The position numbers and the translations under genes were made by a program. 64,000 bases of DNA from positions 744,001 through 808,000 of the forward strand of contig OY253669.1 in NCBI GenBank assembly GCA_958009085.1. The letters run 5' to 3'. Positions 499 to 64,000 of the stretch are shown here, piece after piece. The notes beneath the pieces were generated by a model. That model had not been told where the DNA came from. It did no database searches and saw only the letters and a list, made by a program, of their open reading frames with translations. The stretch is from Protoeuglena noctilucae. Taxonomy: Eukaryota. Position 1 is the stretch's first letter; the number at the start of each line of letters is the position of its first letter.

Positions 499-3400
499 AT
501 GTTCGATTGGCTCAACTCGCCCCTGGTGAGAGGGCTGCGTCCACGTTCAAGCGCGCGATTTGCATGGTTCGGCCTCTTCTTCGAGCCGGATAGACGCCGA
601 GGGCCCGCGTCGGCCTCGCAACGCGCAAGGGCAAGGAGATCCCGCTTGCCCCCACAGTTCGCGCGCGCCGCGTCGACAGAGGCGCCCTCCCAGCTCATCG
701 GGGGCCGGCAGACGCTACAGAAACGCGAGCAGCCGTCGAGATCGCCGGCAGCGCAGCATCGCGGCAACGCGAAGGCGGGGACGAGCGATGCCGCCCGCAT
801 GGCCGCGGTTGGCGCCCCCGCGCCCTCCGCACGGCCCTCGCACCCCGCGGCGCGTGCGCTCGCTTCGCTGCGGGGCGCGATCACGGCCCGCACGCACGCC
901 GTCTGGAGCACGGCGCCCGCCGCGGTGCCCACCACGCCGCTGGCCGCGCAGGGGTGGGGCGCCCTGGCCATCTCCGCGGCCCTGGTGGGCAGCTGGGTGC
1001 GCGCAGCGCTGGCGAGCTGGTGGGCCTTCGACGCAGTGCAGCGTCTGTCGGGCCAGCGCATCGCCGGCGAGGCGGCTCTGGCCCAGGACGGCACTTCGTG
1101 GGCCCATGCGGCCCGCGCCAGCCTAGCATCAGCGAGCGCCGCCGCGACGCGGGCCGCGATGACGCTCCTCTCGGCGCTCTTCGGTGTGGGCCCCGCCGTC
1201 GCCGCCGTCGCCGCCGCCCGCGGCCGTGACGCCGCGTCGCGCGAGCGCTGGATGGTGGAGTCGCCGTCGTCGCCGGAGGCACCGCTCGCTCCCCCCGCGC
1301 CCGCCGGGATCTCGCCGGTGGAGCTCAGCCGTCTCCGCGACCGCCTGCGGTCCGAGGAGGCCCGCGTGCAGAAGCTCGTGTCTCAGCTGGCGGCCGAGCG
1401 TGACGTGTCCAACCGGCTGCGGGACAGGCTCGGGGAGGAGCGCTCCCGGCACCTGGAGGAGCGCCGTCTAGTGCTGCAGAACTCCCCGAGCCGCGTCGAG
1501 TTCGACATGCAGGCCGAGACGATTGCGTCGCTGCAGGCGAGCGTCGCGGCCGGGCGATTCCGCTGACAGAACAGTGGCGCCCGCAGGGTCTGAGCCCGCC
1601 GTTCTTTTTGCTAATCGCAGGCAGACTTGGCCCGGGCGAACGCGCTGATCAAGTCGCTGCCCTCCAAAGGCCAGTGGCAGGACGCGCTGCTGCAGATCGA
1701 CAAGCTGAAGGAGGAGCTGACGTCGCTGAAGGCCGAGCTCGTCCGCACGAAGAATGCGCGGGAGCAGGTGCGTGCCATCGCCGGCGCGGGTGGCGGTGCC
1801 GAGGGCACTGAGGGCTGGGTGGCGCGATGGGCGACGGGCGTGGTGTGCCGCTTTCCGCAGGCGGAGCAGGCGCTTCAGGCGGCGAAGCGCTCGGCCCAGG
1901 CGGACCTGGCGGACGTGAAGACCCGTTTGGGCCGGGAGGTGGAGGCGCGCGCGGAGCGGGAGCAGCAGGTGTCTGCGATGGAGGCAACGCACCGGCAGGA
2001 GACGGCGCGGCTGCAGGACGCCGTGACGCAGCTGGAGGCACAGCTGGCGGACGCGCGGGCGACGGGGACGGACGCGACGCGGCTGCAGGCGGCGGTGGCG
2101 GACCTCGAGTCGCGGCTGCAGGCGTCGGAGGAGCGCGCCCGGCAGGAGGCGCTGCAGCTGCGCTCGGCGGCGACGGCGCTGGAGGAGCAGCTGCGGGAGG
2201 CGCGGGCGGGGGACGAGGGGGAGGTGCAGCGGATGGGGGAGGTGATCCGCGAGCTGGAGGCGCAGGTGAAGGGGTCGCAGGAGGCCAGCCGGGCGGAGGT
2301 GGCGGGGCTGCAGCAGCTGGTGGCCACGCTGGAGGCGGAGGGCCGCGAGGCGCGGGCGTCGTTTGAGGCCCGGATGGGGGAGGTGGAGGCGGCGTACGTG
2401 CGGCAGATCGCGGAGCTGGAGGAGCGGGCGCGGGGGCTCGAGGCGGACCTCCGAGAGGCGCGGGCGGGGAAGGACGCGGGGCAGGAGCGGGGGGCGGAGA
2501 TGGAGGCGCGGGCGCGGGAGCTGGAGCAGCAGGTACGCGATATGTTCCGTGCGCTCTGTTGCTGACCATGTCACTCGCTTTGCTGATGCTTGCCCTGTCC
2601 TCCATCGTCGCCCGTGTGCAGCTCCGCTCTCCTCCCCCGCCGCAGCTCACGCAGCTCCAGGCGCTCCGGCAGGATGACGTGCAGTCCAGCGAAGCGTCGG
2701 GTGCCGCCAGCGCCGCGGCCATCGCGGATCTCAAGAGCCAGGCGAGGGGCCGGGGGACCTGGGCAGACTGCGTGCAGCTGCTGCCGTCCGGCGCGGCCGC
2801 AGCTCAGCGATCGTGGGCGCGCATGCAACGTTAACAGTCTCGTTTGGTTCTCGGTCCCAGATCGCCGCTCTCGAGCAGATGGCGGAGGAGGCGAACGCGC
2901 TCCACGCGGAGGAGATGGAGCAGCTGCGTGCGCATTACGAGTCGACGCTGGACGACGCGGCGATCGCCAAGGAAGAGATGGAGGTCGAGATGGAGCTGGC
3001 GTCGTCGCGATGGGAGGCAAGCGGGGGAGGGCGTGACGGGCGATGGCGGGCGCGTATTCCGCTTATGTGCACAGGGCTCACTGCGCTCTCGAGGCTTGTC
3101 CGCAGGTGGAAAAGGCGAGGCTCGAGACGCAGATGGCGACCATGAAGTCGCAGCTCGAGAAGGCCAAGGCGGAGCATGCGGTGAGGGCTGGGTGCCGATG
3201 AAAGGTTCATGTACCATTGGGCTAGACTAAAGGCTTTGTGCCGATGAGGGGGGGGAACCGCGCTCCCGTCTTAACCCTGCCTGTCGCGTGGAGCGGATGG
3301 GGACGCGCTAAACGTCTCGCGTGCAGGCGGAGACGACGCGCATGAACACCAAGCTGATGGAGGTCATGAAGGCTGTGTCGGAGGCGGCTGCCGAGAAGGA

Positions 3401-5613
3401 GGAGCTGGAGGGACTCGCGCTGAGCCTGAACACCCAAGTCAAGGAGCTGCGGGAGAGTCTGGTGAGCCCGCACAGGGGGGCGATGGGCATTGGTGCAAAC
3501 GCCGTTGTGCCTTGGGACTGTCGCAACCCCCGCCGCCCTCTGCCGCCCCGCAGAAGGCCATGAAGGTCACGCGATCGAACGGCAACGGCTCCCGGCCCCT
3601 GTCGCCGGGGACGGTGTTCCCCATCTCCGACACGCCCATGCCGATGCCCGGCCCCCCGGCGCCCGCGCCGGTGGTGGTGGCGGCGAAGCGCGTCGAGGAG
3701 CTGGCGCAGACGCGGACGGGCCGCACGACGCCCGCGGAGGCGGAAGCGGAGCTGGACGCGGGTGGCAGCGCCGTGCCTCTCCCGACCCAGGCGAGCGTCG
3801 CTGGGTGGGGTGCCATGCCACAGCGACCCATCTGCCCTGGTCCGGGCTCGCTCACGGCCCGCGTCGATGCAGCTGACCTCCGCCGCTGCGCCCGCCCTCT
3901 CTGCGCCTTTCCTTGTGCCACCCGCGTACACCTCCTCACACTTCCACACTCTGTGCCGGTGCCGCACATCGGTGGCTGTGCCAGACTCCCCCTCCCCGCC
4001 TCTGCTGCCTCGCAGACGGCGCCGCGCGCCCCTAGCGAGACCGTCCGCCGGGGTGTTTCTGACGAAGAGGAGTCGCTGACGGAGGGGGAGGAGACGCCCG
4101 GGTTTGACCCCGAGGACGTTCCCCTGGGGTGGGTGCGAGAGAAGGTGGTGCAGGCGTCTGCGCCGGGGCTGGTGATGCGCATGGCGGGGGTCATGGCGCC
4201 GCACGTCGAGAAGGAGGGCCGCGGGGAAGACGCCTTCTTTGTGGCGGCGCGAGGGCGGGGCGCGATTGGCGTGGCGGACGGCGTCGGGGGCTGGAACCAG
4301 GAGGGGGTCAATCCGGGCAACTTCTCGCGGATGCTGGCGCAGACAGCGCGGGGTATTATCGAGAAGGGCCCGGAGAAGGGGTGAGGGCGCGCGGAGGGCA
4401 CGGGCGCAGTGCGGGCGAGTCCGCGAGTTGGCTTAAGTGCGCGGGCATGCATGGGGCGGCCACGTTCTCACCGCCGCGCATCGCACGTCGCCCCCGCAGC
4501 AGCGACTTGCGTGTCGTGATGGACGCTGCCCACCGCGCCACAGACATCCCCGGGGGCGCCACCTTCGTGATGGCCCAGCTGGTGGCGCCGTCGGGCGGCG
4601 ACGCGGACGCCTCGGCGACCCTTCAGGGCCTCAACCTGGGCGACTCGGCCTTCATGGTCTTCCGCAACGGCCGGCGTGTGTTTGAGAGCCCCACGCAGAG
4701 CCACGGCTTCAACATGCCCTACCAGTTCACCCAAGTGTCCAGTGAGCAGCCGCTGCCGCACTCTATCGTGTTGACTTACTAGTAACTCGGCCACAGTGTT
4801 TTTCCAATAGCCCACTTCAGTGCACCCTCATCGTTCCTATCGCCTGACCAATCGCAGAGTACCTCACATGCTCACTCACCTCCCACCCCTCCTCTCCCCG
4901 CAGTGTACCCCGAGTCCGACACGGCCGACCGCGCCGAGGCAATGACCTTTGAGGTGCGGGAGGGCGACGTGGTGGTGGCGGGGTCCGACGGCCTCTTTGA
5001 CAACCTCTGGCACTACGAGATCGGGGACGAGATCGTCGCCCACGTGCGCCGCGCCACGGGCGTCGCGAACTACGGGCCCGACCCCGGCTCGCGCACCCCC
5101 AAGCGCCCCACGAGCCCCCTGGGCACCGTGGGCGATTCGCTGGGGCTCGGGAGCCTCTTCGGCACGCGGGGGTCGTATGAGGACCGGGAGACGACGGAGT
5201 CGGAGTCGGAAGAGGAGGTCGAGGGACCCGTCGTCGATCTCAGGTGAGTGGCATGGGTTGAGGGGCGTGGGTGTTGGGGCTCACTGTCGACGTCAGGTGT
5301 GGGACATGGGCTGATGGGGCGTGGAATGTGGGGCAGGAGTGATAAGAACGCCTTCATCCCCAAAACTTGCAAGTGAATCTGTCTCCTTCTTCACAGCTCC
5401 GTGGACCCCGAGCCTTTGGCCGAGCGCCTGGTGGACTTGGCGCAGAAGTACGCCTACGACGAGGGTCACTACAGCCCCATCCTGGACCGGGCCAAGGAGG
5501 AGGGGCAGCTGCCGTGGCAGATGTACCTGCGGCCCACCATGGGAGGCGGCAAGATGGACGACTGCACGGCAGTGGTGGCCATGATTGTGCGCAACGGCCC
5601 ACGCAAGGCCTGA
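499..5613 (+). CDS. Multi-exon gene (~13 exons): long coiled-coil N-terminal half fused to a C-terminal PTC7/PPTC7-type PP2C phosphatase
   Basis: Exons can be joined in frame from ATG 499 to TGA 5611-5613. PP2C motifs: GEDAFFV, GVADGVGGW, NLGDSAF, QSHGFNMPYQF, GDVVVAGSDGLFDNL, GGGKMDDCTAVV. E/Q/A/R-rich heptad exons lie at 1300-3460. Start codon is tentative. Confidence 0.8.
5233..5334 (+). repeat. Degenerate tandem duplication (period 53) of an exon end plus 5' splice site
   Basis: GTCGATCTCAG|GTGAGTGGCATGGGTTGAGGGGCGTGGGTGTTGGGG (5233) versus GTCGACGTCAG|GTGTGGGACATGGGCTGATGGGGCGTGGAATGTGGGG (5286). Confidence 0.75.
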
Positions 5614-5904
5614 GGGCGCGGCGAGCGTGCCGGCGCGGTCTCTCTCGCGCCTCGTCACGCCGCACGTCGCATGCAGCGACAGGTAGCAGCAGCGACCATT
5701 CCATCCCTGCGCGAGATGCGCGGGCATTCTTTCTCACTCCCGCGCCAGCCGCGAGCTCTAGCTCTTCAAGCGTGGGACATGGCACTGGCCCCGTATCACG
5801 GGCATCTAGTCCAACCCAGCGACACGAACTATAAGAAGCCGGGTGCGCAGGCTGAGAAGCTATCGACACGCCCAAATGCAGTTGGACTGCGGGCTCGTGT
5901 CAGG

Positions 5905-8900
5905 TCATCGTGCACCGTCCCCCCTGCCCAGCTCCTCCTCTAACTGCTCCATTTGCCGACTCAAGTCTCGGACATCCACGCCCAGCGCCTCCATCTCCGC
6001 CAGCAGCGAAGACTGGTCTAACGCATCCGCACCCGCAACGGCACCCGCCACCCCCGCCCCACCCGCCCCTTCCCCCCACCCACGCCCTGCCTCGTTCCCA
6101 TCCATGCTCTCCCCTTCTAGCAACTCCAACAGGTCTTGATTGCCACCCCCGGCACCCTCCAGGCACCCCAAACCCTCGCCGCCCAGCCCAGCCAACACCG
6201 CAGCGGACGTGTCACTGGACAGGCTCATTCCGCCCCATTCGCTCCAAGGGACGTCGTCACGCAACGAAGCCGAGTCCCCTGCGCTCCACGGCGCCTCCCC
6301 CGCATCACCCACCCACAACCCCGCACCGGCGCCCACACCACCACGACTGCCACGTGCAGGCCGCCCTGCATTTGCCACCCCGTGCCGCGCACCCCGTGCG
6401 TCAGCGCTGGCCCCGACTGCACCATGCACCACCGCCGCTCTGCCACTGTCAGGGCGCGGATGTGACCCACCCCGCCTCCCCGTGCCCTTCCCTGCGCCGT
6501 CGCCACTGCCCCGCAACGCAGTCCCGCCGCGACTCTCCCGCACCCGCGCGCCCCCAACCCCTCGCGCCCCACCCGGCGGTGCGGCTGCCACAGCAGCGCC
6601 TCTGCTCCCCGCCAGCGCCCGCGTCCCCGCCGTGCCGCAGTCATGAGCGCCCCCGACGCAGCCATCCGCCAGCCTCCCGCCCCACGCTTCGTCGACCCAC
6701 CCCGTCTCCTGCACCACCCCACAGTCGATCACCGCCAGCGCCTGTCGCACGCGGTGCCCCTGCGCCTCCCTCTCTCGTCTCCACGCCTCGGTGGCCTCTT
6801 CCAGCTGCCGCCGCCCCTCCTCCAACCCCCGCTGCGCTGCTGCCACCCTCTCCCTCTCCGCGCTCAGCTCTTGGCCTTTGCGTCTAACGCCCTCCTCGCG
6901 AGCAGCCACCTCCGCCTCCCGCTCCCGCATCGACGCCCCTGCCCGATGCACCTCCGCTTCGCGCCGCGCGACCGCGGCCTCCCGGTCCGCGCATGCCCGC
7001 GCCCGGTCGCGGAGCTGCCGCGCGGCACGCGCCAGCTTCGCCTTCTGCTCGCGCAGGTCTCTGGAACCCTCTGCATCGTCGCCCGGACTTCGCGGCTCCG
7101 GAGGAGGAGAGACGGGGGCCGCCAGGTCCGCCCTTGCCTCCCTCAGCTGAGCCTCGAGGGTCGCCACCTGAAAACACGGCACACGCTGTGGGAGTGAGAG
7201 CTGGCAGCACTGGGTGCGGTGGTAACTGCAATGGGGCCTGATGGTGCCAGCGGTGGGCACAGAGCTATGAAAGGTAGAGGCCCCTACTCCTGCTCGCCTG
7301 GGCGGCAGATTCGGAGAGAGCGCGGTCCATTGCTGCCACCCTCGCTCGCAGTCGCTCGGCCTCGGCCCTTGCGACCTCTGCCTGCCGCTCCACCGCCTCC
7401 GCCTGACGCCGCGCCACCTCCGCCTCCGCAGCGGCTGCAGCGGCGGTGCGGGCGTGCGCCGCGTCCTTTGCCACCGACGACCGCACGACCTGAGGGAGAG
7501 CGGCACGAATGCTGAGGTGGCTTGGGCTGACCAAACATGGACTCTCAGCGATGATGCATGTACCACTGCCAGGGTACCCAGGTCTTCCTCTAGGCATGAA
7601 CCCCACCCCTGGCACGTTGCGGCGCCACCGACAACCCTCTCACCTCCTCTCTGGCTACCCCCGCCGCCGCCTCTGCGTCCCTGGCCCTTGCAGCCGACCT
7701 CTCCGCTTCCTCTGCCAGCCGCCGCCCCTCGCCCCTCGCCGCCGACAGCCGCACCTCCAGGGCCTTCCTCGCGCTCTCCGACGCCTCAAGTGCTTTCTCC
7801 AACGCCTGCACCCTCGCCTGGAAGCCGCCCAGCTGCGCCTCGGACCGACGCACAACGTCGTCGACCTGCGCAGAAGCAATGACGATGATGAAGGATGCAA
7901 GAGGAGAGGAATTCCGTGCTTCAGAGACACGTCTTGCAGCAAAGGTGCCATGCCCCTTGCTGACGGTCACAAAGCTGCCCTCGCCTGCCTCGCAAGCCCC
8001 TGCGCCTGCCGCGCTGCCGCGCTCTCCCGCCGCAATCGCGTTGCCTCCTCTCTCAGCGATGCATTCTCGTCCATCAACGTCCTCAGCTTCTCTGCGAGTT
8101 GAGGGGCACCGCGAGGGAACCCTGCCGACTCAGCACAGCACATGTCACAACCACCACAGCACGATGCACCACCTTAGCCTCACCAGCCATCATCCCCGCC
8201 CCAGCTCCAGCCACCCCCGACTCCCACGACTCGCACGCACACCCCCGCGCCCCTGCACTCCTTCCTGGGGACCCCCCTGGGGACGATGCCCTGGGTCGGC
8301 AGCACGCGCAACGTGCTCTCCCGCCGCCTCGCGCCTGCCGCCCACCCCCGCCCACCAAGTCGTCATCCATATCGCTGTCCGTGTCGAAGGCCGGGCCCGG
8401 GTCCGCCTGATCGGACGCCGTGCCCGCCACCGCCGCCAGCAAGTCCGCCATCTGCAACGTGCTGCGGTCCAGATGCCTGCGAATACCATGGCACAGAGCT
8501 GGTAGCACCTGAATCACCCTTTCATGATGTCGTCTTTTGCAGACCTCATGCCAGGTTACTGTCGCTGTGCCACACAAAAACGCGACTCACCGCGTGGCCT
8601 CCGCGTGCACCTTGGTCAGCAGCGTGGCCGCTTCCGGAGTCACGGCTCCAGGCACGCGGGCGATCCCCGGGATCTCGGCCAGCACCGTCCCGGCCGCGTC
8701 CAGCAGTGCCTGGCACTGGGTGGCGCGTGCTGAGACCGCCTCTCGCAGCGCTGTCAGGTCCTCCCGAGCCGCCTGCAGGGACCAACAGCACACGGCATGG
8801 CCACACCGCACTCGCTGGCTGTGCCGGCCGAGCCTGGCAGTCCGCTGCGTGGCTCTGACACCGCCCAGTCAGGCTGGCAATTTGTGTTTGCCATGTCACC

Positions 8901-10840: not shown

Positions 10841-13545
10841 ATGCCGCCAAAAAAGGATGACCCGGGGACGGCGCCAGAGGTGAGCTGTCGACGTGGCGCG
10901 GGGCCGTCCTGTCCCGTTGCAGGGCATCGTGGGGCCAGCAGCCCCGCACGCGTCGCCTGCGCGTTCGCTGGCCTTTCTTTCGGTACATTTTGCGACGCTT
11001 GTTCTCCCGCCGCGCGTGGATGCAGGGCGACGAGGGGGAGGAGGAGCGGGAGCTCATTGAGCGGGAGCTCGCCATCGCGTACCTCAAGAGCAAGCTCGGC
11101 AAGTACCAGCAGAGCCGGGACTCGCTCGCGGGAGAGGTGGCGTATCTCGTGGCGGAGCTGGAGAAGGAGAAGTCGGACCACCGGTGCGGGCCGCGTGAAG
11201 CCCGTCTCGCAGCATGGGATGCCGTCGCTTGCATGCGCACACGCCCGTCGCTCCCGCTCCCGCAGAGCCATCATCGATCTCTTGACGCAACAGGCGAAGG
11301 CATCCACCCAGAGGATGGAGGAGATGACGGCGCAGAAGGACAAGCTGACCAAGGAGCTCGAGGACGTGCGGAAGCAGATGAAAAAGGAGCTGGAGGAGCT
11401 TCGCGCGGAGAAGGTCCGGCGCGCCGCGAGCTATTTAGTTGCTATACGGCAGTTTGCAGCCCTCGGAGCGCCGCACGGGAGCGCCAGGCGCACGTTTGGG
11501 GACGTCGCCCTTTCTGCAGGACGCGAGGATTTCTGAGTTGGAGGATCAGACGGAGAAGCAGCAGCACAAGCTGAAGGAGTTGGAAGAGTTCACGCGTCAG
11601 AAGGAGACGCTTCAGAAGGAGCTGGAGACGGAGAAGCAGCAGCGTGCGCAGGACGAGCGCAAGTGGCGCGAGGAGAAGACCACGATGGAGCGACACTTTG
11701 TGCAGGAGAAGGACCGCTGGCAGAAGGAGCTGCAGCACCAGATCAAGGAGACGAAGGCGAGGAAGCGGAGACAGTCGGCTGATGGACGCCTGCCCTGCTG
11801 GGTGGCACATGTGTCGACGCTGCTGCGGGCGTCTGGCGTTCCGCTTGCAGGCCCAGATGATGAAGCTGATGGACAACCAGCTCGAGATCACGACGAAGCG
11901 GACCATCATGGAGAACGAGCAGATGCACGCCGAGCTGGCCTACCAGAGCCGCCAGAGCGAGAAGATCGCCGCGCGCAACAAGCAGCTGGGCGACGAGAAC
12001 GCCGACCTGAGGCGCCGCGTGGAGCTGGCCAAGCAGACCGAGGCGAGTAGAAGACGCGGGGTGGAGAACATGGTTTGTCGTGGCTTTGGCATGGGCCCTG
12101 CCATGTACTGCGCGACGAATGCCGTCGGCCCTGGCGCCTGGGTCACGCAGGTGGAGCTGGCCAAGCGCAACCACGTGTACCAGAAGACGATCAAGACGCT
12201 GCTGGCCAAGATCCGTAGCGAGACCAAGGTCGCGGAGACGGAACAGAAGGAGGCGCACGGCCTGCAGTCCCACGTCGAGGTGCGCGTCGCGCTTTGTGCT
12301 TTGTGCATCGTGCGCAGCACGTCGGCTGCGTGCGCCGCGCTCGTCTGTCTATGCAGCGCCTCTATGGAGCACCTCGTGGTGATTTACATGCACTCGACGC
12401 GGCACAGCTGCTCGGCGGGTCCCTGTGACCCATCCTGCATCGTTTCGGGCTCTCCCTGGACCGCAGCTGCTGGACAGCCGCGTCCACGCGCTGAGCATCA
12501 CGTGCCAGGAGCTGAACGACCAGCTGAGGGCGGCGAGGGACCACGCCGTCCAGCTCGAGGAGGAGCACGACCTCTGGATGCAGCGACAGGTGGGCAGGCC
12601 GTCACCACTGCTGTCACGATGGTACCGGACGCACCGCTCGGGTGCATCCTGATCATGCCCTATTTCATGGTAAACCAGAGCCTTATGTGCTTCTCCTCGA
12701 CCGCAGGGCGCCGCTGCGCTGTTCCTGATGCAGAGCATCGAGGACATTGCGTCTCTGGAGCCGGACCACGTGGACCATTCAATGCGGGACCTGGCCACGC
12801 GAGCCCAGGAGTCGTGGGCCTCCATGACGCCCGAGGACCGCACCGCGCTGCTGCGGAAGCTCCTGCTGTCGATGCAGGTGAGGGATGTGTGTACGGGAGC
12901 TGGGAGCAGGGCCAGCCTGGGCCGGTGGACTGCCGCGTGTGTGCCAGACCGGTGTGTGTGGTCGTACCTCGCAGGTGGTCGACCCCAGCATGGGCGGGGG
13001 AGGCGCCGGCAAGGCGGGCACGGTGGACCGACTGGTGCTGCCACCCGTGACTCATTCCCGGACCAAGATGTCGATGCGGCAGATCCGGGGCACGTCGCAG
13101 AAGGGTATGGGGGACGCAGGGGACACGGATGTGCGCAAGTCGTCGTCCAAGGCGAGTGAATGCGCGACGCCACCGCTCGCGGGGCTGGGTGCGGCGCGAG
13201 CGGGGCCGGGATGGCCTGTGTGTTCAACGCCTTGCAGAGAGTGGTGGCGACCAACAAGTGGCTGAAGGGGGAGCGTGGATCGGAGATCATGTACGGCACC
13301 GTTCCGGGCGTGGAGGACCTGCTGGAGGCCGTGACAAGTGGGAAGGCCGACTTTGCGCTGCTGGTGAGGGGCGCTATTTTTCGGGTGCCGTGGTGGATGG
13401 CAAACGCGCGTCGCGATGCCGACGACCACGCTCTTCTGGGTCCCTCTCCTTCCCACGCAGTCGATGCGCCATTCCACCACTCGGCCCCGCAGCGCCAACT
13501 CCATGGCATCGGGTCCCAAGAGCATCCGGAGGGGCGATGCGCTAA
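10841..13545 (+). CDS. CFAP157: Cilia- and flagella-associated protein 157 (11 exons)
   Basis: MPPKK start. Spliced product contains LEEFTRQKE, MERHFVQEKDRWQKEL, ITTKRTIMENEQMHAELAYQSRQ and KRNHVYQKTIKTLL, which match my recollection of the CFAP157 coiled-coil. Stop TAA 13543-13545. Confidence 0.8.
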
Positions 13546-13765
13546 AGGCGTAGCTGACATGCACGCGTCAGATAGCTGGCCAGCGAGCGAGCGAGATTAA
13601 TGGCTCGTCAGAGCGACCACGCTGCGCTTATTACGCTTGAAGCGAGGGGAGGGGCTAGGTCGGGCGTCACAGTGATCAGACGATAAAGGGGCGCTGGCGT
13701 GACCGATACGCCTTCCACCTTCGCCGTGTCCCGGCTCGAGACACCCAGTGGCCCCACCATCTACA

Positions 13766-16542
13766 ATGGGGACTCTCCACACAGCCACGGCCACCGTGCC
13801 TCCATCCGGTGCGCGCCAGGCAACAAAATCGCTCGTCTCGTCATCAGCAAACTTTGCGCGGTCCTTGGCGCACCCCGCGCTGCTCAGCAAGCACCTGGTA
13901 ATCGTGTTCCTCAAATACTCACAATCTCACGTGCCAGCTCGTGGTCGCAGCTGCCCTGCGCCTGGAGGCTGAGCGACTTTTGGAGCACTTGCGAGCGCAC
14001 CATGTCCTGCCGGATGCGGTGAAAGAAATCTCAATCCGACAGTTCGCCCACGGCCAATCGAATCCGACCTATCTGCTGACGCCGACCCTGTCGAATGGGT
14101 CGCTCGGGGCAGCGCTCGGTGAGCTGATTGCTGGGAGGGTGCCCTTCATCGCCCTCTTGCTGCTCGCAAACGCACCCTATGCGACACCACACCGTACCCT
14201 CGCGATGCAGTGCTCCGCAAGAAGCCTCCTGGAAAGCTTCTGGAGTCCGCGCACAACGTGGCGCGGGAGTTCAAGGTCATTGCAGCTGTGGGCCACGCGG
14301 GCGTGCCCGTGCCGCGAGCGATTTACCTGTGCCAGGACCCCAAGGTGCTCGGCACGGACTTCTATATCATGTCGCACGTGCGCGGCGTGGTGCACAAGGA
14401 CCCGTCGCTCCCCGGCGTGCCCCCGGGGGTGCGCAACGCCATCTACCGCAGCGCCATCAAGACGCTGGCTTCCATTCACGCCGTCGACCCCGAAGGCGTC
14501 GGCCTGGGCCAGTTCGGGCGCGCGCCAGGGTACGCCGGGCGGCAGGTGCAGCGGTGGCGGGAGCAGTACCTTCGGTCCGTGCCGCAGCCCATGCACGAGG
14601 TCATGCGCCTGGTGCAGTGGCTGGGAGCGCACGTGCCGGCCGCCTCGGACCTGGCGCCCTACGCGCACCCCGGGACGGGCGGCACCCTGGTGCACGGCGA
14701 CTTTCGTCTCGACAACGTCATCTATGAGGAGACGACGCCCTCCCGCGTCCTGGCCGTGCTCGACTGGGAGCTCTCCACCCTCGGGGACCCGCTCTCAGGT
14801 GCCGCTGCAGATGCCGGCGCAGCCAAGGTGCATCGAGACAGCAGCCCAGCGCCGGTCGCTGCGTGAGCGGCGCTGCCAGGCGCTGGGGTGTGAACCCCGC
14901 ACTTACCGCCTGGCTGCTCCTCGCCCCCAGACCTTGCCTACTTCTGCACGGTGTTCCACCTGCCCCATTCAAAGATCCTACCCAGCCTGACTCGGCCCGG
15001 TATGGACCTCCAGGGCATCCCCACAGAGGACGAGCTGGTGGATGCGTACTGTGAGGCACGGGGAGTGCCCAGGCCCCCGGAGCAAGTGTGGAGGTTCTAC
15101 CTTGGGCTGGTGAGGGCTGAAGGACGGCACGCATCCGAAACCTTGCTCGCTGTACTCAGTGGCTCGGCACCTGGGGTGGGCAAATTCACATCGCACTTAT
15201 CGTTCCTGAACAGGCGACGTGCTGCGTTGTCACTGAAACTCTGTCTCTGCAGTTTGTTCAACACCGTACAACACCGCGTGCCCGCGCCCGCAGTCCCTCT
15301 TCCGCGTCTGCGGCATCCTCGCGGGCGTGCACGCGCGGGCCTTGCAGGGTAACGCGTCCTCGGCCAGCGCCCTCGAGTTCGCTGCACCGAGCGTGCAGCG
15401 CGCCATCGCCGTCGCGGCGCTGGGGGTCGTGGGGATCGCCACGGGGGGCGGGGCCTGGGGCCGCGAGGAGCGGGGCCACGCGGCGATCCCCACGCCGACC
15501 CTGGCGTCGCAAGAGGCAGCGGCGGGCGGTGCGAGGGGCGCATTGAGGGGCCGCGAGCATGGGCAGGGTGCTGGGGCAGCGGGGGCCGTGGCAGGGGGGG
15601 CAGAAGGGCGTCACGGGGTCTTGGGTCGCGCCGTGGTGCGTCGGTGGTGGCACCACTGTTGGCGAAGCTTACAACAATGATCACATATGCATGCATGGCC
15701 CGGCTGGCGACCGCAGCGATGGCTTTGCAAGGTGGCTGTGAGACAGGGCCACATGACGTGCATGAATGACTGTAGCTCCCGCACCCCGTCTTGCCGCAGA
15801 TGAGCGCCCCTCCCGGTGTGCTGTCCGGTTCGACCGTCCTGGGAGCGCCACCCTCGCGCATCAAGCCCCTGCTGTCCCGACTCCGCCGCTTCCTCCAGGA
15901 GCACGTCTTGCCCGTCGAGAACACCCTCGCCGACCACGCGAGCGGGTGAGGGGCACCAGTCGCTGTGACAGTGCTAGGCAGCGCATGGGAAGGGGCCTTG
16001 CGGACGCCGGGCAGCACAGCGTGGCACGGCAGCTTTGCGTGACACGGAAAAGATCCACAATGCTTACCATGTCTCATATTTATGTGCATAACACAGCGCA
16101 GTGTGAGGTACCTCAGGCATCGCACCCTGCATGGCCCCCTGCCCGCAGGCCGGACCGGTGGACCATCCCTGCGGCCCAGGAGGCACTGAAAGAGGAGGCC
16201 AAGAGACTGGGACTCTGGAATTTGTGGATCAGCCCCGATCTGGCAGCAGCCATGGCGAACGGGGTGCCTGCATTGCAGTCGGACCTGGCCAGGGTGGAGC
16301 GCGGAGATGGTGGGGATGGCGAAGCGGCAGAGGGCCGGGGCGAGCCCTGGGGGGGTCTGCTGGGGGCCGGCTTGAGGCGAGAGGCAGCGGTGATGCTGGC
16401 TATGCCTTTCAAGCCCTCTCCATCACCCCCCATTCTTTGACAGTTAACACGCTGTCCCCATCTCCACTCCTCATCGCAGTAACGTCGAGTATGCGTTTTG
16501 CGCGGAAATCCTTGGGGAGTGCGGCCCGGCGAGCGAGGCGTG

Positions 16543-16581
<39 letters not shown>

Positions 16582-18050: not shown

Positions 18051-18422
18051 GTGATCGCCAAATGCACTTCATGCAAATCACTAAGACGTCACAATCGCTT
18101 CAAGGACTGTTAATACGACTATCCTGTGAATCCGGCGGAACTAGGCTGGCTGGGCGAGTAGACGCTATGTGAATCGCATCGATGCGTGGGAAAGGGAGTG
18201 AAACACGGCAAGCCAAGTACTCTTGCTACCCAAGGATTGCCACAAAGTGTGGTTGCTTTGCTGAGGATCGTGGGGATCTGACGCACGCTGTGCCAGCACG
18301 CAGGGACTGCCAGCAGGCGTGCCGGGGTGCAACACCTACCACCGACCATGACACCACAGCATGGCGCATCGTCGGCTGTGACCAGACCACACCAGGCACG
18401 GCTACCCAACTCCAGCGCCGCT

Positions 18423-21400
18423 TCATGGTGCAACGGAGACGGGTGCGATGGAGTCCTTGCTGTTGGACTTCTGCAGCCACCCGGACGCCAGCACTCGGTC
18501 CTTGGCGTTGGCCAGGCTGTCCAAATGCTCTGCGACCCTGGCCCCGTTAATCACGATCATCACCCACTGCCGGATGCTCGCGAGCGTGGGCGAGGACTTC
18601 TGCGCCTCGGCGTGGGACACCCCGCTGAGCAAGGCCAGGGCCGTGGAGAGCTGCGAGGGCTTGATGGCCGTGACGGGCGCGCCGAGCTTGACATCGTTGG
18701 AACATTCGGACATGAGGACGAGGGCGTTGCGGGGCTCGCTCGACTCGAACGCAAGCTTGGACTTGATCAGCGACCACGCCTTCTCGCGGCCGGAGCCGTC
18801 CGTCAGGTCCAGCTGACCCAGGGCGCGCACGTCGCCCGCGAAGATGAGGCAGTGCATGGCCGCGAGGATCCGCGTCACCTTCTCCGTCGGCTCGCTGCGG
18901 ACGCAAACGGACGCCAACCGGGATATAGTACACTAATGAGTACTACCCAACGCACACAGAGCGAGTGCTAACACTGCGAGTCGTGTTGCAGACGCCCCTC
19001 CTCACGCCGCGTTCCTTGCCAAGGCGTTCTCGGGACTCACCGATGTCCCTTGATCTTCATGAGCTGCTCCTAGCCTCTCAACACTCACCGGTAGCTCTTG
19101 ATCTCCATCAGCTGCTTCTGGAGGTCCTGCAGCGCGCGCACTTGGAACACGACCAGCTTGCTGAGCGTGCCGTACAGGGCGCGGTTGCCGGGGAGGTCGT
19201 CCCGCAGCGTCACCAGCCCGTCCGGGCTCTCCTGCAGCTCCTTCTCCACGCGAACCATGTCCTCCGTGCGCCGCCCGCGCTGCTGCACCCACGTCGACAG
19301 CTCCTGGGCCAGCTGCTGCAGCAGCGCCCCGACGCGCCAGTCCACGTGGGGCTCCGGGTCGAGCTCGGGGTAGTGATCGGCGCGTTTCTGGCAGGCGCAG
19401 AGCTCGCAGGGATCGCGGCCCTCGTCCGCGGTCGCCACGACCCCGCCCAGGATCTGCAGGCCATCCGTGGCGTGCTTGGCCGTGCCCGGGCGGTGGCGCC
19501 AGATGGGCGCGATGGAGACGCCGTGGCGCACGGCCAGGCCCACGAACTCGTCCGACTCGATGCGCTTGGCCATTGTCTTGAAGACGCGGGGCACGTGCTG
19601 CGGGGCAAGCGCCGTTGGGAGCGTGTCTTGTCACACACAGTCACCACCGCACCCAACGCCACTGCATCCCACGCCGTGCCACCGCACCTGCATGCGCATC
19701 ATGGCGCCGTACAGGACCGTCAGCTCGTGCAGCCGGGCCACGCTCATGCCCCCGCCGCCGCCACCGCCGCCGCCGCCCTCTCCCCCGGACTGCCGCGCCT
19801 GCGCCACGGCCTGCGCCACTGCGCCCCCGAAGCCGCTGCCGTCCTTGTTGGGTGGCGTCGGGGGTGGCCCCGGTGTCTTGGTGCCCTGCGTGGACGCATC
19901 TGCCAGCGACCCGAGGCTCGCCGAGCTCCGCTGCCGGGCCTGCTTGCGATTCCACCGTGACTGCGAGCGGTGGGGCAGACACGCTTGTTGGACGACATCC
20001 GCTGTCACGAGGAGCCTGATAATACCAGCCCCGCCATGTTCAGCAACGTGTATAGCAGCGCAGCGGGCCACCCCCCCGCCACCGCCACCGCCACTGCCCG
20101 GGGGGGGGCAGGGACGCTGAGTGACTTGGCATGTCAGGCTCACCCGGTTACCGAACGAGGTGTCGAAGTCCCCCGGCAGCTCCTCCGCCGGCGTCAGCGC
20201 CGCGTTGAGCTCCTGCAAGAAGCGACGCGAGGGGAATGGGCTGGGCTCATGCGTGCGATTCACAGAAGCTGCGCCCGGCCCCGGCACTCCCCCGGCTGCG
20301 GTACCGACCGTCCTGCGCATTGCCAAGCCATCCGCATGCCCTACGCGCCAGGAACCTTGCTTTCATGCACAGTGACTCTCACCCGCGCACGTTTGGTGGA
20401 CACGGGAAGCAGCTCCCCCGTGTACATGACGTCCACCTCGGGCGCCACCTGCACCACGTCGGCAGGGTTCACGGCCGCGAGCCCCAGGCGCTGGGTCAGC
20501 TTGATGACCTCGGGGGGCGGCTTGCTGGGCACCAACTCCCCACGCAGCTTGGTGGTCGTGGCGCCGTCGACCGGCAGCTCCAGCACTGCGAGCGGGGTGG
20601 CAGAAGGACTTGTAGTATGCTCGCAAGAGTCTATGTTCGTCATATCTTAGTGCCATCCGCACGCCAACCTTGCCACACCACCCTTGCCAGCCCCAGCCAC
20701 GCCAACACCAACCCCAGCCCCGCCAGCACCAGCCCCGCCACACCAGCCACTCACCGGTGAGGCGCACGGAGAAGTCCCGCAGCATCTGCCTGGCGACGGC
20801 GTCGAGGTGCTCCAGCAGCAGCTGCGGCGAGGTGGCCTGCGACGTGGCTGCAATGAGCTGCTCCGTGGCGGTGAGGGCCGAGTCCTCTGCTGTGTCGCGG
20901 ACGAACCGCGAAAGCACCGACGAGCGCGCGCCGATCCATCCGTACACGCGGCCCTGCGAGGAGAGCGTCGCAGGGTGGATTACCGGCTGGGTTGGCGGGC
21001 GCAGTGTTGTGCGGGTGAGACACGCATCGACATTGATACTGGCATGCCAATGCTGCCCGAGTGGTATTCGTTGTGAGCGATCCGCCGACATGACGATTCT
21101 CGTCCGTCCGCTCGCCTGGAACTCCGAGGGCAGCCGGGTGAGCGTGAGGGCGGCGAGGTCCGGCCGCTTGCGCGCCAGGGACACGACGAACTCCGCAGCC
21201 ATCTCGGGGTCCATCTGGACCAGCGCGGAGCACATTTTCACCACGTGCTCCTGCACCATCTCCTGCGGGTCCCGCATCTCCCGCTCGCTGATGGCGCGGC
21301 GCATGGCACGGTCTGGCCCCGTTCGGATGGCCATGGACGTGACCTTGGCGAGCGGGGGGCGGCCCTTGCCGCCCGAGGAAGCCTGCGGGGAGCAAGCGGA

Positions 21401-24400
21401 GGCAGGTGGCGATCCAATGCCAGTGCTAGACGGGTTCCACGACAGTCACCCTTGCTCAACCAACTAATCGATCCCAGGGCAACTGAGTGGGCCACTCCAA
21501 GGTGGGAGTGCCAACGATTGGGCCATGGCAGGCAAGGAGTGGGCTAACTGTAAGTGATTAACAAGTGGGCTGCGATTGCGTTCGCGTCGCACCTTGGATG
21601 GCCTCGGCAGCGGCATCCCCTGGCCCGGGGTGGCGCTGGACATAGGCACGGGGCTCGGGGCGCCACTGCGGGAGCTGGGGGTCGTGTCGCCGACTTGGGA
21701 GTTGGAGTGGGAGGACGACTTGCGGACGATGATGCGCTCGGGGACGGAGACCTGGGGGCGGGGGCGGAGGGAGCGAGTCTAGGGAGGTGTCTGCGACAAT
21801 CACAGCGCGACAGTGACCGGTCACGGGCGCTGCAAGCAGCGGCGCCCGGGTGTCTGTCTCGCCTGCGACTCCTTGGCGAGTTTCGTGACTCGGAATTCGA
21901 TCTCCTCCGCCACGCGCACCGCCTCCGCGATCTCTCCCGACGTGACCAGGTCCCGCAGCATCATCTGCGTGGCCTCCTCGGGGGTCATGTCCTTCTCCGC
22001 CCTGAGGGAGAGGATGGTGCGGGTTATATCACATTTGCATCATACGCAAGAGTCGTGTCCTTGTCCTTCCTGAGAGGATGGGGTGCGGACATCCCATCTG
22101 CTCATATCGCATCTGCTCTATGCAAGTCATGTCCTTCTCCGCTATCTGCAGAAGCGCACCGCTGACTTGGGGGTACCCAAGCGACTCCACCCAGCGGCAA
22201 GGGTCAACGGCAGCCCGTCACACACCCGCACCTACACGAGCACCCCGGCAGTCCTCACTGGGGTCCAAGCATCAGCAGAGGTCAAGCGCAGCCTGTCACA
22301 CACCCACACGCACAGAAACACCCCGGCGGACCAGTTGGCTCACTTGGGGTCCACGCGCCGGTTGGTCTTCTTCTTCCCCACGGCCGCGAGGAACTTCTGC
22401 AGGCTCTCCTGCACCGACATGCGCTTGTTGAGGTCGGTGAGGGACACGCGCGCACGCAGGGCCGCCTCCGCGTCCAAGTCTCTCAAAATGCGGTTGTGCT
22501 TCCCGGTGTCCACGATCGCCTCGCAGGCCTGCGCCACGTCGCGCGCCGCGATCCACAGGCGCATCGCCATGTCCACCTCCTCCACGAAGCGCGTGGGGGC
22601 GTCCGAGCGCTGCGGCGGGGGCAAACGGTGCGGTTGAGGACGGCACCAGCTGGTCAGGAATGCGACATAGCGCTGCACGCTGGTCCCCGGCAGCCCAGCG
22701 TTGCGGGCAAGGGAAGGCACGACGATGGCCGGGTCTGCTGCGCCCTGCCCGGCGTGATTGACTGCATGCGGGCAGCATGCGCGTGCAACACCAACGAGTC
22801 TCTCACGTGGAGGGTCATGAGGATTTGCGAGGTCCAGTTGGGTCCGATGAGGTTATGCATCTCCGCGAGCAGAGAGCCGACGCGCGCGGGCTTCATCTGC
22901 CGCATAACCCACACCGCGCGGTCGATGGGCCACTCGCGGGCGAAGGTGACGTCGGACAGCCGGAAGAAGGACAGCATCTGGAGCAGCAGCGTCTCTGCGG
23001 GAAACGAGAGGAGGATAGGGTCAGCAGTAGTGGTTAGCAAAGTAGCGAAGAAGGTGTCGCAATCGCAATTTGTGGTCTTTCGACAGAAGAGAGGCCAGGC
23101 CATCGCGCAGTGCCACTCTGGCTCCGGTGCGTGGCTCACCGGGCAGGGACATGAGGGCGCTGGCCACCATGGTCTGGGTCCGGCAGTTGCGAATGGCGAG
23201 GACGGACGCCACGGGGCCGTTTTCGAGCATCCACACGGCCATCTCGTTCGCGCTCCCCATGTCGTCCAGCGCCGCGCGGTACTGCGTCTCCAGCGACGCC
23301 TCGCTCGCCGTCATCGTCGCCATCACCGCCGGCAGCTCCACCTTCGCCTTCACGCCCTCTGCGCGGGGCAGGGGCAGGGGTGAGAGATGAGAGATGACAT
23401 AGAAGATAAGAGATTAGCAGTAGCCATTCTTCTCGGCGCCGAGTGTGGGCTGAGAGAGTCGCCGTGAGGGACGCCAAAGAACCAAGGAACCCCCACGCAA
23501 GCACTAACAAGGCCCCTCACGTAAGCACTCCGATTACGTGGATCCACCGTCGCTCACCGGACGTCGCGGGTGGCTTGGTGTCGAATATCTTGGTGAGCTG
23601 GCCGAGGATCTTGTGGTGCGTGGCCCGGTAGAGCCCCTTGCGCGCGTGCTGGTACTCGGCGCACGCCGCAAACACCTTCTGCAGGTTGCTCTCGTCGCTC
23701 TCCGCGAGTCCCCGCACCACGGCGTGCACGCGCGCCTCCTCCATCTCCACCAGCGTGTGGCCCACAAGCTGCTCGTCCATGTGCTGCGGAGGAGGGCGCA
23801 GAGAGCGCAGCGTGAGCCGAACAGCGTGAGCCGAGGCGCTCTGGCCGACAGCATGGGCATTCAGCACCAACTGCAACATGGCATTATCGGCCGCGGATGC
23901 AAGCTGGCATGGACAAGTATCCCGCAACCACCTCAATGGCGGGTGCACTTGAACTGTGCCAGGCCGAGTCGCCCACACCACTGCCACTGCCTCCTCACCT
24001 TCAGCACCTCCGCAGCCACTGCCTCCTCACCTTCAGCACCTCCACCGCCTCCGCGTCCTCGACCCTCGCCAGCACCGCCGAGCGCAGGCTGGCCGGCAAG
24101 GGCTGCAGCAGCTGCGCCACGATCGGCGGGTCCGTGCCCTTGGCAGCCGAGTGGATGGCGTAGAACTGGCCCCCTTTCCACGCGGCGATGGTGAACAGCG
24201 GCGCGTGCGGCACGCCCCCCGTCGACCCCGGCAGCCACCGGCGCAGATCCTTGAGATTCTTTCCCCTAGCCACCTGCTCCGCCAGCTCCGCGGCGTTGAC
24301 GGCCACGGCAACCGCCTGCAACACGCCCACGCTCGAGGACGTCTGGCTCTGGGCGAGCCTGGGGTGGAGGGGCGGAGGGGCGCGGGTCAGAGGGCCGGCG

Positions 24401-58700: not shown

Positions 58701-60599
58701 CGGGCCCCAGTCCAGCCGCTCCCGCCGCAGCCTGACCCCGACCGGCCGCAGGTCCCGCACCAGCGTGGCAGACGAGGCGAGGCGGCACGCACGCCGCGTC
58801 GCAGCACGTTCTGTTCACATGCGCAGCGCCGCCCCTCCTCGCACCCAGCTGCGCCAAGGGAGGTGGGCACTGCGAGTTGGCCGGTATCGGCGTTGCCGCA
58901 AGCAAGGCCGTTGTGTCGGTGTGCGCTCGCAGGACGCGTCTGGCGAGGGCACCAGTGGAGACGAGGGCGCGGCCACCCCCCGGCCCAGGGTGTGCCTGCT
59001 GGACATGGCGCGTGCCAGAAACGTGGAGATCGTGCTGAGGCGCATCAAGCTCTCCGCCCGGGAGATCGTCGACGCCGTGGCGGCCATGGACTCGGACGGT
59101 GCGTTTGCCCACGCTGTGAAGCGGCCCTACTCAGTCACAGAAAGCCTCATCAGTCTCAGCCACAGCTCCGTCACGACCTCGGTTGGGTGGTTGCAGAGGC
59201 TGCAGAGACCATCTAGAGACACGAGCGCGCGTGCGCCATCGCCCCAGCACCCGCTCCACTCGGCCTTCGCAGAGCTGGGCCCGGACGTGATATCCCGGCT
59301 GATGGCGGCGGTGCCGACGTTAGATGAGCTCAGCCTGGTCAAGACGTGGTCGACGCGGGAGGGCAACGACCCCTCGTCCCTGGGCCTGGCAGAGCGGTTT
59401 TTCCTGGAGTGCGCGCGGGTCAAGCGCCTGGCCGGGAAGCTCCGTGCGCTGGAGTTCAAGGCGGGAGTGATGGAGGCGTCGCGGTCGGTGATGCAGGCGT
59501 GCGAGCTGGTGGACGCGGCCCGGTCGCAGGTCCGGGCGTCGCTGGAAGGAGGCCGCCTGGGCCGGCTGCTGGCGCTCGTGCTGCAGGTTGGCAACTCGCT
59601 CAACGTGCGTGCACAGAACAAGGCACGCGGGTTCAAGCTGGCCACCCTGCTCAAGCTCGGCGACACGCGCACTTTCGCCAACGCCCAGGCAAGCAATCGA
59701 GTGCGCTGAGAGAGACGCCTTGGGGCCTTGCAGACGCGAGGCGGTCTGCTTTGTCAGGTGCACCTTCCGGTGTGAGACACCCAAGGTGGTCAGTCACCCA
59801 GCGAGCCCACGTGGTGATGCGACGCTACCCCTCTCCCGTGTGTTCCTGGCAGGTGTCGCTGCTGCACTTCTTGGTGGCCCAGGCCCAGGTGGCCGACGCC
59901 TCGCTGCTGGATGCCGAGGAGGACATGCCCGCGCTGACGAGGGCGGCACGGGTGGTCTTCGCGGGGACGGCAGACGAGCTGCGGCGCCTCGAGGCGGGGC
60001 TCCGGGCGCTGGAGGTCGAAGTGGAGAGCATGAGTAGGGACGCCCGAGATGCGGCGAGCGCGGCTGCAGCCAAGGTGGGCCGTGCGACGCGGGGGCGTGG
60101 CGGAGGGGTCGGGAGAGGGTGAACTGCGCACACGCGACGCCTGGGGAGCGCTGACCCGTCCGCCACGGCGCTGCTCGCAGGGTGTGCCCCTGGCTGCCAG
60201 CGAGACATGCGTGGCGGAGGAGCTCGCGGACTTCCAGGCCCTGGCGGCGCGCGTGGTTCGAGAGAAACTGCGAGCCAAATTCCAGTCCAGCGTAGACGGC
60301 TTCCTTTCGTTGGCGGAGTTCCTCAGCGAAGGTGCGAGCGGTCGTGAGCTGGACGTCGTTGCAAGGCTCGTTCATGTCTGTACCTCTGCCCGCGTTCCCT
60401 GTCCCCAGACCCTGGATCGGGCCCGAAGATGGAGGCGGAGCAACCGGCGCGCCTCTTCACCGTCCTGCACAAGTTCCTGCACAGCATCCGCACCGCACGC
60501 CTCCGTGACGGCCACCTCGTGCAGCAGTGCCTGGATGCCATTGCCAGCGCGGACGAGCAGCTGCGGCGGCGTCTCTCCGAGGAGGAGTCGCAGAATTAA
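52771..60599 (+). CDS. Formin (FH1 + FH2) with very long low-complexity N-terminal region; 5' end not resolved
   Basis: FH1 polyproline at 57930-58210. FH2 motifs RRTLHWEPV...TFW, LLDMARARNVEIVL, LGLAERFF, LVLQVGNSLN, ARGFKLATLLKLGDTR, VSLLHFLV. Stop TAA 60597-60599. Confidence 0.85.
56568..56655 (+). repeat. 24-nt coding minisatellite (GGSHVGVT x3.5) in the formin giant exon
   Basis: GGAGGGTCCCATGTGGGCGTAACT x3 plus degenerate flanking copies. Confidence 0.9.
57997..58126 (+). repeat. FH1 tandem repeats (PPVPPGLKP x4)
   Basis: CCACCCGTGCCACCG(G/A)GCCT(C/G)AAGCCC x4 with variable Pro spacers. Confidence 0.9.
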
Positions 60600-62406: not shown

Positions 62407-62698
62407 GCCGGGTTTTGCGTGGGACGGGCCGCGCACGCGCCGGCCCCAGTGCTTCTTTCGCCCAGGCGTTCCGCCTCTAGACCTGTGTAGATACCCAAAC
62501 CTCCCGTCCGTGCACGCGGCGACGCTCGAGCGCCCGTGAACCAACCGCCCCTTCAAAATGGCCGGCGATGTCTGCCGTGGCATAGCCGGCCGAATTATGA
62601 AAAGTGAGAAGAGAGCAACGCCACGGTTGTCAGCTATGAGAAAAAACAATAAGAAGCAGCGCTGCGGTGTCCCAGCTCGGGAGCTGTGAAACGTGTAA

Positions 62699-64000
62699 CT
62701 ACTCGTCGTCCCACCCGACCTCTTTCCAGCTGCGGACCATGATGTCCACCGCGCGCCGCAAGAGCTCCACGTCGCGCCGCGGCGACGCCTCGCTCCGCCG
62801 CACCGCCGCCCGCATCCGCGTGCTCTCGGGCTGCGAGGGCGGTTGAGTGTGGGTGTGGGTGGCGTCTCGACAAAGGACATTGCCGGCCAGCGTCCCTCCG
62901 CATCCCTCCCAGCAAAGCCACGGACCTCGCTCGCGGGTGACGTGCCCAGCGACCCCGTGTACGCTCCCACCAAGCCCCCCACGTCCCAGTGCCCCCCGTG
63001 CGCCGCTGGACCCGCCGCAGTCGGAGCGCACGTGTCGCGGGGACCGCGGGCACTCGGTGCGTCGGCGAGCGCCACGTGGCTGTGGCTCATGGCCCGGGCA
63101 GGGGCCACGCTGGGGTCCTGGGTGGCTGGCAAGGAGGCGAGTTGCGATTGCACCCAGGTGAAAAAGCCTCGGTAGGAGCTCCACTGCCGCCTGCCCACGT
63201 CGATGGCCTGCGTATTCGAGAGAAGGGCTGAACGCGGTCGTCATCGTGGCACGTGCGGTCGCCGCCCCGCGCGACTGCACGTGGTGGCGCCTGCGCCATG
63301 GGCAGGCGGGCTGTGAAAGGCCCAGCCAGTGACCCCTCGCCTGGAGCTCTGGGCACGAAGAGACGAGTTTGAGGAGCGGCTGCCACTGCTCCTGCTCGCT
63401 CAGACGACTGCAGTCGAAGACCTTCAGGGAGCGTAGACGGCGGCAGGACGACAGCTGGCTCAGGCCCGCCACGGTGATGCCGTCGGCGCTCTGCAGCTCT
63501 GCGAGGGGCGGTGCGGGGCAGGTGAGGTGGTAAGCCGTGCCGGGTGTGCACCATGCATCGAGCGTCGCCCAAGCGTCAGGCATGCACCCTGCGTGCTGGC
63601 GCGTGGGAAGCAAGTCCCGAGTGCTCACCAAGTGACTCAAGGTGCTTGCAGCGCGCGAGGTGTGCGAGGCCTTCGTCAGTCGCCCTGCTCGCCTGCAGGA
63701 AGGGCCGGGGCCACGCATTTGGTACATGCAAGTGACACTGACCCGCACTCGCGCTTGCCACTGACAGCCAGCCACTCACCAGCACGGAGAGGTGCTTGAG
63801 GGACTGCGCCCTGGAGAGCGCCTCCAACGCCGCGTCTGTGATGCCAGAGGACATGCTGGGGCCCCCGGGAAGCACGAGCGTCTCCAACGACGGAGCGGCA
63901 GCCAGGTACTGCACGCCTGCAAGCGAGGCACCGTAGCGACCGAAGTCAGCGCCGAGACAAGATTGCCAGCGCGGTCGTGGCACCTGACGTGTGCACCGGC
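62699..64000 (-). CDS. Leucine-rich repeat (RNI-like / F-box-LRR type) protein, 3' part; continues beyond the window
   Basis: ITDAALEALSRAQSLKHLSV, ATDEGLAHLARCKHLESL, ITVAGLSQLSSCRRLRSLKVFDCSRL. Stop TAG 62701-62699. Confidence 0.8.

Follow-up and report, generated by a model that had tools for sequence, protein, structure and literature searches.

GC-AG introns, which start with GC in place of the usual GT, comprise 0.3–2% of the introns in plants and metazoans according to values cited in a preprint on pelagophytes (bioRxiv 10.1101/2024.10.30.620910). In Chlamydomonas, 532 GC-AG introns versus 25,053 GT-AG introns were defined by expressed sequence tags, i.e., 2.1% (PMC2846911, Table 2). 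Much higher shares are on record for some algae. In the haptophyte Emiliania huxleyi, GC donors were found at 135 of 241 curated junctions (56%), nine of them verified by reverse transcription PCR (RT-PCR), and the authors credit the content of 65% guanine plus cytosine (G+C) for the donor shift (Feldmesser et al., 2014, BMC Genomics 15:148, PMC4028052). Among the pelagophytes, predicted GC-AG shares are 14–17% in Aureococcus anophagefferens and about 14% in Pelagomonas calceolata, compared to 0.32% in a relative with lower G+C, and the excess was attributed to high genomic G+C (bioRxiv 10.1101/2024.10.30.620910). A full-text literature search gave no GC-AG share for any chlorophyte but Chlamydomonas; subscription journals were mostly outside its coverage, and supplementary tables (e.g., PMC6310983) may hold counts. 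Here we report on GC-AG introns in 64,000 nucleotides (nt) of Protoeuglena noctilucae (assembly GCA_958009085.1, contig OY253669.1, positions 744,001 to 808,000, forward strand), referred to as the window, with positions counted from its first letter. Hand-splicing of this sequence (hereafter the original prediction) had put forward 22 GC donors among roughly 125 introns, i.e., about one in six, against about 1% in well-studied organisms. The latter value agrees with the 0.3–2% and 2.1% given above. That GC-AG introns are real and frequent in the window was confirmed.

The case is one of a known kind: algal genomes that are rich in GC and enriched in GC-AG introns. The G+C content was 67.9% over the window and 65–71% in each 4-kilobase (kb) bin. 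As in E. huxleyi, a GC-rich genome goes together with unchanged AG acceptors and with verification at the RNA level, and gene prediction biased toward GT yields wrong models. Unlike in that haptophyte, where GC is the majority donor, GC is the minority donor here (about 22–29%), and the organism is a green alga, since PsbR is present. The relevant passages of the E. huxleyi paper do not describe a dependence on the flanking consensus (PMC4028052). The pelagophytes are similar in GC-AG share and in high G+C, but they are stramenopiles, and gene predictions give them 0.14–0.92 introns per gene (bioRxiv 10.1101/2024.10.30.620910), in contrast to about eight per gene in the window. In comparison with Chlamydomonas, GC-AG introns are about ten times more frequent in the window. 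Here the enrichment is found in a green alga with many introns per gene, and it depends clearly on flank context. With ordinary U2-type GC-AG introns the window shares C at position +2 of a consensus donor, stronger flanks and normal acceptors. A strengthened flanking consensus of GC donors was reportedly described by Thanaraj and Clark in 2001.

Transcripts came from a single study of marine metatranscriptomes, four runs of which (X1–X4) contained 32–50% of the sampled words of positions 14001–24000. Contigs were aligned to positions 1400–21399, and the 15 best-supported of 39 joints were examined; stretches of the window lacking such RNA cover were given no weight in either direction. One of these, 8449 to 20072 (AT..AC), skips 11.6 kb and has a shorter side of just 21 letters; it was treated as a chimeric contig and discarded as spurious. 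Of the 14 joints kept, five had GC..AG as their sole resolution (donors 1537, 2742, 3017, 3791 and 13152, Table 1), and the remaining nine, including one on the minus strand, were GT..AG. A further GT..AG joint, 18895–19088 (-), was implied by the contig table. The five GC..AG joints were all of the claimed sites represented among the examined joints. Only a single base difference was listed between the RNA contigs and the assembly over 20 kb, so that the sampled population hardly differs from the assembly. An unspliced contig from run X2, covering positions 3503–4000, had zero differences and the same GC at 3791, so this GC is also present in the sampled population.

Some other features of the contigs were recorded. 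A contig from run X4 had a loose poly(A) end at 5784 (+), 171 nt past the stop of the gene at 499–5613, from which it follows that the contigs derive from mRNA; position 5784 is probably the polyadenylation site of this gene. In run X2, contigs were unspliced across GT and GC introns alike, at 3503–4000, 6329–7178, 17203–17717, 19105–19737 and 20881–21267. Such contigs represent either pre-mRNA or a carry-over of DNA into the RNA library. Low-depth contigs of the same run had odd joints with inserted letters (2202–2418, and 12242 to 2130), joining regions of two genes that code for coiled coils. These are probably assembly chimeras at repetitive coding sequence rich in Glu, Ala and Gln.

A second line of evidence came from proteins. 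A search with one exon of the CFAP206 gene retrieved a protein of 629 residues (P0121) which was 100% identical and originated from a contig of 3167 nt, so that it must come from spliced RNA. The ten-exon model of this gene, at 30547–33316 (-), equals P0121 letter for letter over the 629 residues. Eight GT introns are fixed thereby, together with the GC intron that the original prediction had placed at 31706. Altogether, the segments of six GC introns are missing from mature RNA, five according to contig joints and one via the identical protein; the others were placed by homologue alignment or prediction. For homologues we applied a strict test, in which the eight residues on either side of a junction had to be free of gaps, with three or more identities per side. 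Six claimed sites passed, i.e., 16377, 24565, 24914, 35174, 36195 and 40088. In the ACAD-type gene, the junction 16376/16480 was gapless in eight of eight homologues and restored the conserved motif which the original prediction had quoted for it. A protein search for this gene found no protein from the same organism, the best match being 55% identical. The gene at 34037–41275 (+) has 15 exons and codes for 1660 residues with Big_9/cadherin-like and ephrin-receptor-like cysteine-rich domains. Among its homologues are a pedinophyte protein, P0124, and marine metagenome proteins. Alignments over the full length of its product were obtained with P0124 and with P0123 (1611 residues, 55% identity). 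Here too no same-organism protein was found by protein search (best match 54% identical), and a metagenome scan with exon 36324–37181 for close relatives or transcripts returned only relatives with 25–26% identity. For the gene at 18423–28626 (-), with 26 exons and 1931 residues, conservation with P0144 (1744 residues, 44% identity) extends along the whole protein; no Pfam match was found on the seven of its open reading frames that were scanned. The sole 100% match to this gene, P0142, was set aside as an unspliced read-through of the GT donor 24030, uninformative on GC donors. An indel region close by made site 35841 fail the strict test, and at 21862 the homologue alignment had a three-residue gap 12 residues upstream of the junction. 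In sum, outside support for the 22 sites was strict for 12, by eye for two (21115 and 35841) and weak for two (21862 and 39403), while six were prediction only.

Table 1. GC-AG introns in the window, with the evidence for each.
Position	Strand	In original prediction	Remarks	Evidence
1537..1620	+	yes		RNA joint in X1, X3, X4; only canonical placement within a 6-base ambiguity; gene finder
2742..2860	+	yes		RNA joint in X1, X3, X4; gene finder
3017..3105	+	yes	GCAAG donor	RNA joint in X1, X3, X4; gene finder
3791..4015	+	yes		RNA joint in X1, X3, X4
7045..7137	-	no	Donor context ggag/GCAAGG; predicted only	Gene finder, both training runs
7168..7297	-	yes	Predicted only	Gene finder, both training runs; GT-only model has 7168–7339
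7866..7984	-	yes	Predicted only	Gene finder; GT-only model skips an exon via 7866–8355
11757..11850	+	yes	Predicted only	Gene finder; GT-only alternative 11802–11850
12043..12150	+	yes	Predicted only	Gene finder; GT-only model reads through
13152..13237	+	yes		RNA joint in all runs, X1–X4
16377..16479	+	yes	APH+ACAD (ACAD10/IBR3-like) gene	Homologues; strict test passed
20954..21115	-	yes		Gene finder; gapless and conserved versus P0144 by eye; strict test failed
21752..21862	-	yes	Weak outside support	Gene finder; homologue region poorly conserved
24359..24565	-	yes		Gapless and conserved versus P0144; strict test passed
24781..24914	-	yes	GCAAG donor	Gapless and conserved versus P0144; strict test passed
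31580..31706	-	yes	CFAP206 gene	Ten-exon model identical to P0121
35174..35279	+	yes	GCACG donor	Gapless versus P0123 and P0124; strict test passed
35841..36008	+	yes	Donor after TG	Matches P0123 by eye; strict test failed
36195..36323	+	yes		Gapless versus P0123; strict test passed
39403..39565	+	yes	Weak support	Within one residue of the P0123 alignment; upstream side variable; strict test failed
40088..40219	+	yes		Gapless and highly conserved versus P0123 and P0124; strict test passed
58777..58932	+	yes	Formin gene; predicted only	Gene finder; in-frame GT alternative 12 nt upstream, at 58765
59689..59852	+	no	Formin FH2 domain	Gene finder, both training runs; FH2 profile continuity
63208..63340	-	yes	Predicted only	Gene finder; GT-only alternative 63126–63333

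Introns over the whole window were called by a self-trained gene finder based on dynamic programming, with codon log-odds, matrices for donors and acceptors, and intron lengths modelled as log-normal. Strand conflicts were settled by score, and RNA joints were never used as labels. With both GT and GC donors allowed, 31 of 132 introns were GC when the starting prior for T at +2 was 0.5, and 28 of 136 when it was 0.97. Both training runs recovered all 14 RNA joints and predicted all 22 claimed donors, and five additional GC donors were common to the two. The hand count of the original prediction was close to these totals of 132–136 introns. In a four-way run, where GT, GC, GA and GG were given equal priors, all 14 joints were recovered as well, and the 134 introns consisted of 103 GT, 29 GC, one GA and one GG. 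GG is as frequent as GC in the sequence, yet it was chosen once versus 29 times, so the existence of a GC class is not a matter of composition. The 134 introns were distributed over 17 gene models, 16 of them multi-exon, and GC donors were present in 11 of these 16. A control in which GT was combined with one decoy gave GG at 22 of 135 and GA at 14 of 139 introns with nine of 14 RNA joints recovered; it was rejected as uninformative, because the decoys replaced real GC introns which were forbidden there. Restriction to GT cost 240 log-odds units and altered about 30 of 133 introns, leaving only 103 introns common with the GT+GC model.

The calls could in principle be an artefact of hand-splicing, with nearby GT donors truly used and GC dinucleotides merely abundant at 68% G+C. 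GT alternatives do exist at the six sites without outside evidence, and AGGCGAG also occurred 14 times without use as a donor. Against this stand the five sites at which RNA contigs are joined precisely at GC and the ambiguity leaves no GT to choose, the one site fixed by the identical protein, the six sites passing the strict homologue test, and the near absence of the composition-matched decoy GG. In addition, a GT-only model could by construction recover at most nine of the 14 RNA joints, and it split two genes which RNA or homologues show to be single. We consider the artefact very improbable; it is refuted at 12 or more of the 22 sites. As for the sites placed by the gene finder, the GT alternative 11802–11850 is 49 nt long, below every RNA-confirmed intron (84 to 225 nt). 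The Pfam profile is undecisive at 58777, since the junction precedes the FH2 domain, and the exons flanking 63340 had no Pfam match. At 59689..59852, the 138-residue exon before the intron reached position 238 of the FH2 profile at its residue 133, and the profile was resumed at position 243 at residue 1 of the exon after it.

The GC share was obtained in several ways. The four-way run gave 29 of 134, or 24 of 129 when the calls dubious by context (listed below) were subtracted, in which case GC donors remained in nine gene models. Among evidence-backed introns the share was 12 of 41, and among transcript-defined introns six of 24. All of these figures lie at 19–29% with wide intervals, and each greatly exceeds 2.1% (p ≤ 1e-5); the probability of at least 12 GC among 41 introns at a rate of 2.1% is 3e-11. 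The original prediction was thus right that GC donors are frequent, but its one in six slightly underestimates the share, which the four-way run and the evidence-backed introns put at about 22–29%.

All 22 claimed donors read GC on the strand given for them, and in the gene-finder models all of them pair with AG acceptors. The donor pentamers were GCGAG at 19 sites, GCAAG at two (3017 and 24914) and GCACG at one (35174), so that 21 of 22 are GCGAG or GCAAG, and 21 of 22 follow exonic AG (the exception, 35841, follows TG), both as originally described. Over the predicted set, exonic AG preceded 25 of 29 GC donors versus 50 of 103 GT donors (p=0.00025), and the mean number of matches to CAG/G.RAGT outside +2 (the slash marks the exon end) was 6.38 for GC versus 5.64 for GT (p=0.00035). 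Since the donor matrix shared by the two classes could bias the predicted set, the context test was redone on the 41 evidence-backed introns. There, exonic AG was found at 12 of 12 GC versus 13 of 29 GT donors, and the full AG/G.RAG context at 11 of 12 versus two of 29 (p=3e-7). The GC share increased with the number of flank matches, from 5% at five matches to 16% at six, 44% at seven and 67% at eight. As donors, AGGCGAG and AGGTGAG were used 18 times each, AGGCAAG four times and AGGTAAG once; none of the 13 occurrences each of AGGGGAG and AGGAGAG was used. Full-consensus donors had C at +2 in 22 cases versus T in 19, i.e., 54% C, which is not far from the 0.62 measured as C/(C+T) inside introns. 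The composition of GC donors was A at -2 in 86%, G at -1 in 100%, G or A at +3 in 96%, A at +4 in 83% and G at +5 in 93%, and no predicted GC donor resembled the U12-type ATCCTT box. GT donors favour GTGAG or GTGCG, with G at +3 in 92%. Codon phase 0 was found for 22 of 29 GC introns versus 47 of 103 GT introns, probably because A is needed at -2 and third codon positions are nearly all G or C. CAG acceptors were present in 131 of 132 GT or GC introns, and in 28 of 29 GC introns. No difference between GC and GT introns was found in acceptors, pyrimidine tracts, length (median 130 nt) or G+C content.

The likely explanation is that these are ordinary U2-type (major-spliceosome) introns with C for T at +2, maintained under conventional recognition by compensating flanks together with GC-biased mutation. 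As the cause we infer mutation bias acting under standard U1/U6 recognition. T at +2 would repeatedly be converted to C, whether by GC-biased mutation or by biased gene conversion. The resulting C-A mismatch with U1 would be affordable, and near neutral, only if all other U1 pairs were made, which would require the optimal exonic AG at -2/-1 and then G or A, A, and G at +3 to +5. Selection would retain T at +2 in weaker donors, whereas full-context donors would fill with C toward a mutational equilibrium. GC-biased substitution tolerated at donors was among the causes already suggested in the original prediction, and it fits the data, as GC donors are concentrated at perfect flanks and C is about as common as T among full-consensus donors.

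Another explanation would be a lineage-specific change in early recognition of the 5' splice site, making C at +2 nearly free at strong donors and GC a second donor class. Such a change could lie in a variant 5' end of the U1 small nuclear RNA (snRNA), an extra U1 paralogue, or an altered U6, U5, Prp8 or U1C; variants of U1 or U6 were the other cause suggested in the original prediction. The equal frequency of AGGCGAG and AGGTGAG as donors is in its favour, and so is the roughly ten-fold excess of the GC share over that of Chlamydomonas despite similar G+C, for which composition alone may be insufficient. The Chlamydomonas genome has about 64% G+C. Opposed to this, GC donors need more flank matches than GT donors, while a U1 that paired better with C would predict the opposite; the extra matches thus argue against U1 pairing better with C. 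Acceptors and pyrimidine tracts are also alike in the two classes. We regard changed recognition as unlikely, albeit worth keeping in mind. If true, it would make this alga a natural system in which to measure the fitness threshold of 5' splice-site strength.

It could also be argued that GC donors are selected as weak sites for regulated intron retention or alternative splicing. Non-canonical donors are tied to frequent intron retention in the E. huxleyi paper (PMC4028052), and run X2 did contain unspliced contigs. However, the latter span GT and GC introns alike, and contigs cannot gauge splicing efficiency. Furthermore, it is the GC donors that have the strongest flanks, and the near-neutral T:C ratio at full-context donors needs no selection for C. 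Regulated weak sites therefore seem rather improbable. The last explanation considered was that GC-AG introns are copies of a spreading introner-like family carrying a GC donor. Introner elements occur in other marine picoalgae, and the donors 1537 and 3791 have 11 bases in common. An all-against-all blastn search of the 134 predicted introns gave only eight weak hits, i.e., four pairs of 15–33 nt, and GC and GT introns were equal in median length and G+C. The lack of similarity along the intron length rules out such a family within the window, and we give it next to no credence.

Returning to U2-type introns with compensating flanks under GC-biased mutation, and to the frequency on which this explanation is built, several points weigh against them. 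The share is that of 64 kb, and the five GC joints out of 14 are not a random sample, as they come from the best-supported 15 of 39. Six sites (7297, 7984, 11757, 12043, 58777 and 63340) depend on the gene finder alone, with GT alternatives in existence. Of the 29 GC donors predicted in the four-way run, about five are dubious by context (9613, 15522, 45696, 47075 and 61755), the last of them falling inside a signal recognition particle (SRP) RNA. The shared donor matrix hinders the prediction of GC donors in weak context, a bias which the evidence-backed subset reduces but does not remove. Finally, G+C alone may not explain the ten-fold difference from Chlamydomonas, since that alga, at similar G+C, has such a low GC-AG share.

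The SRP RNA (Rfam RF00017, 78.5 bits, full length) was located at 61617–61904 (+), directly upstream of the PsbR gene. The gene finder misplaced two small 5' exons onto it, along with one GG and one GC 'intron'. It was the sole match in an Rfam search of the 64-kb window, where no snRNA was found. Pfam matches of the green lineage in the window were PsbR, an APH+ACAD fusion, FAP206, the ribonucleotide reductase small chain, FH2 and CBS, and they place the window in the green lineage. The closest named relatives by protein search were Chlorellales, with 55% identity, and Pedinophyceae sp. YPF-701, with 45–47%.

With GC donors this frequent, gene prediction restricted to GT gets many genes wrong, and GC donors have to be permitted whenever this genome or related metagenome bins are annotated. 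Where the flanks are perfect, the ratio of T to C at +2 is near neutral, while C is almost absent at weaker donors. The donors of this alga thus give a clean example from nature of a strength-threshold model of the 5' splice site when mutation is GC-biased.

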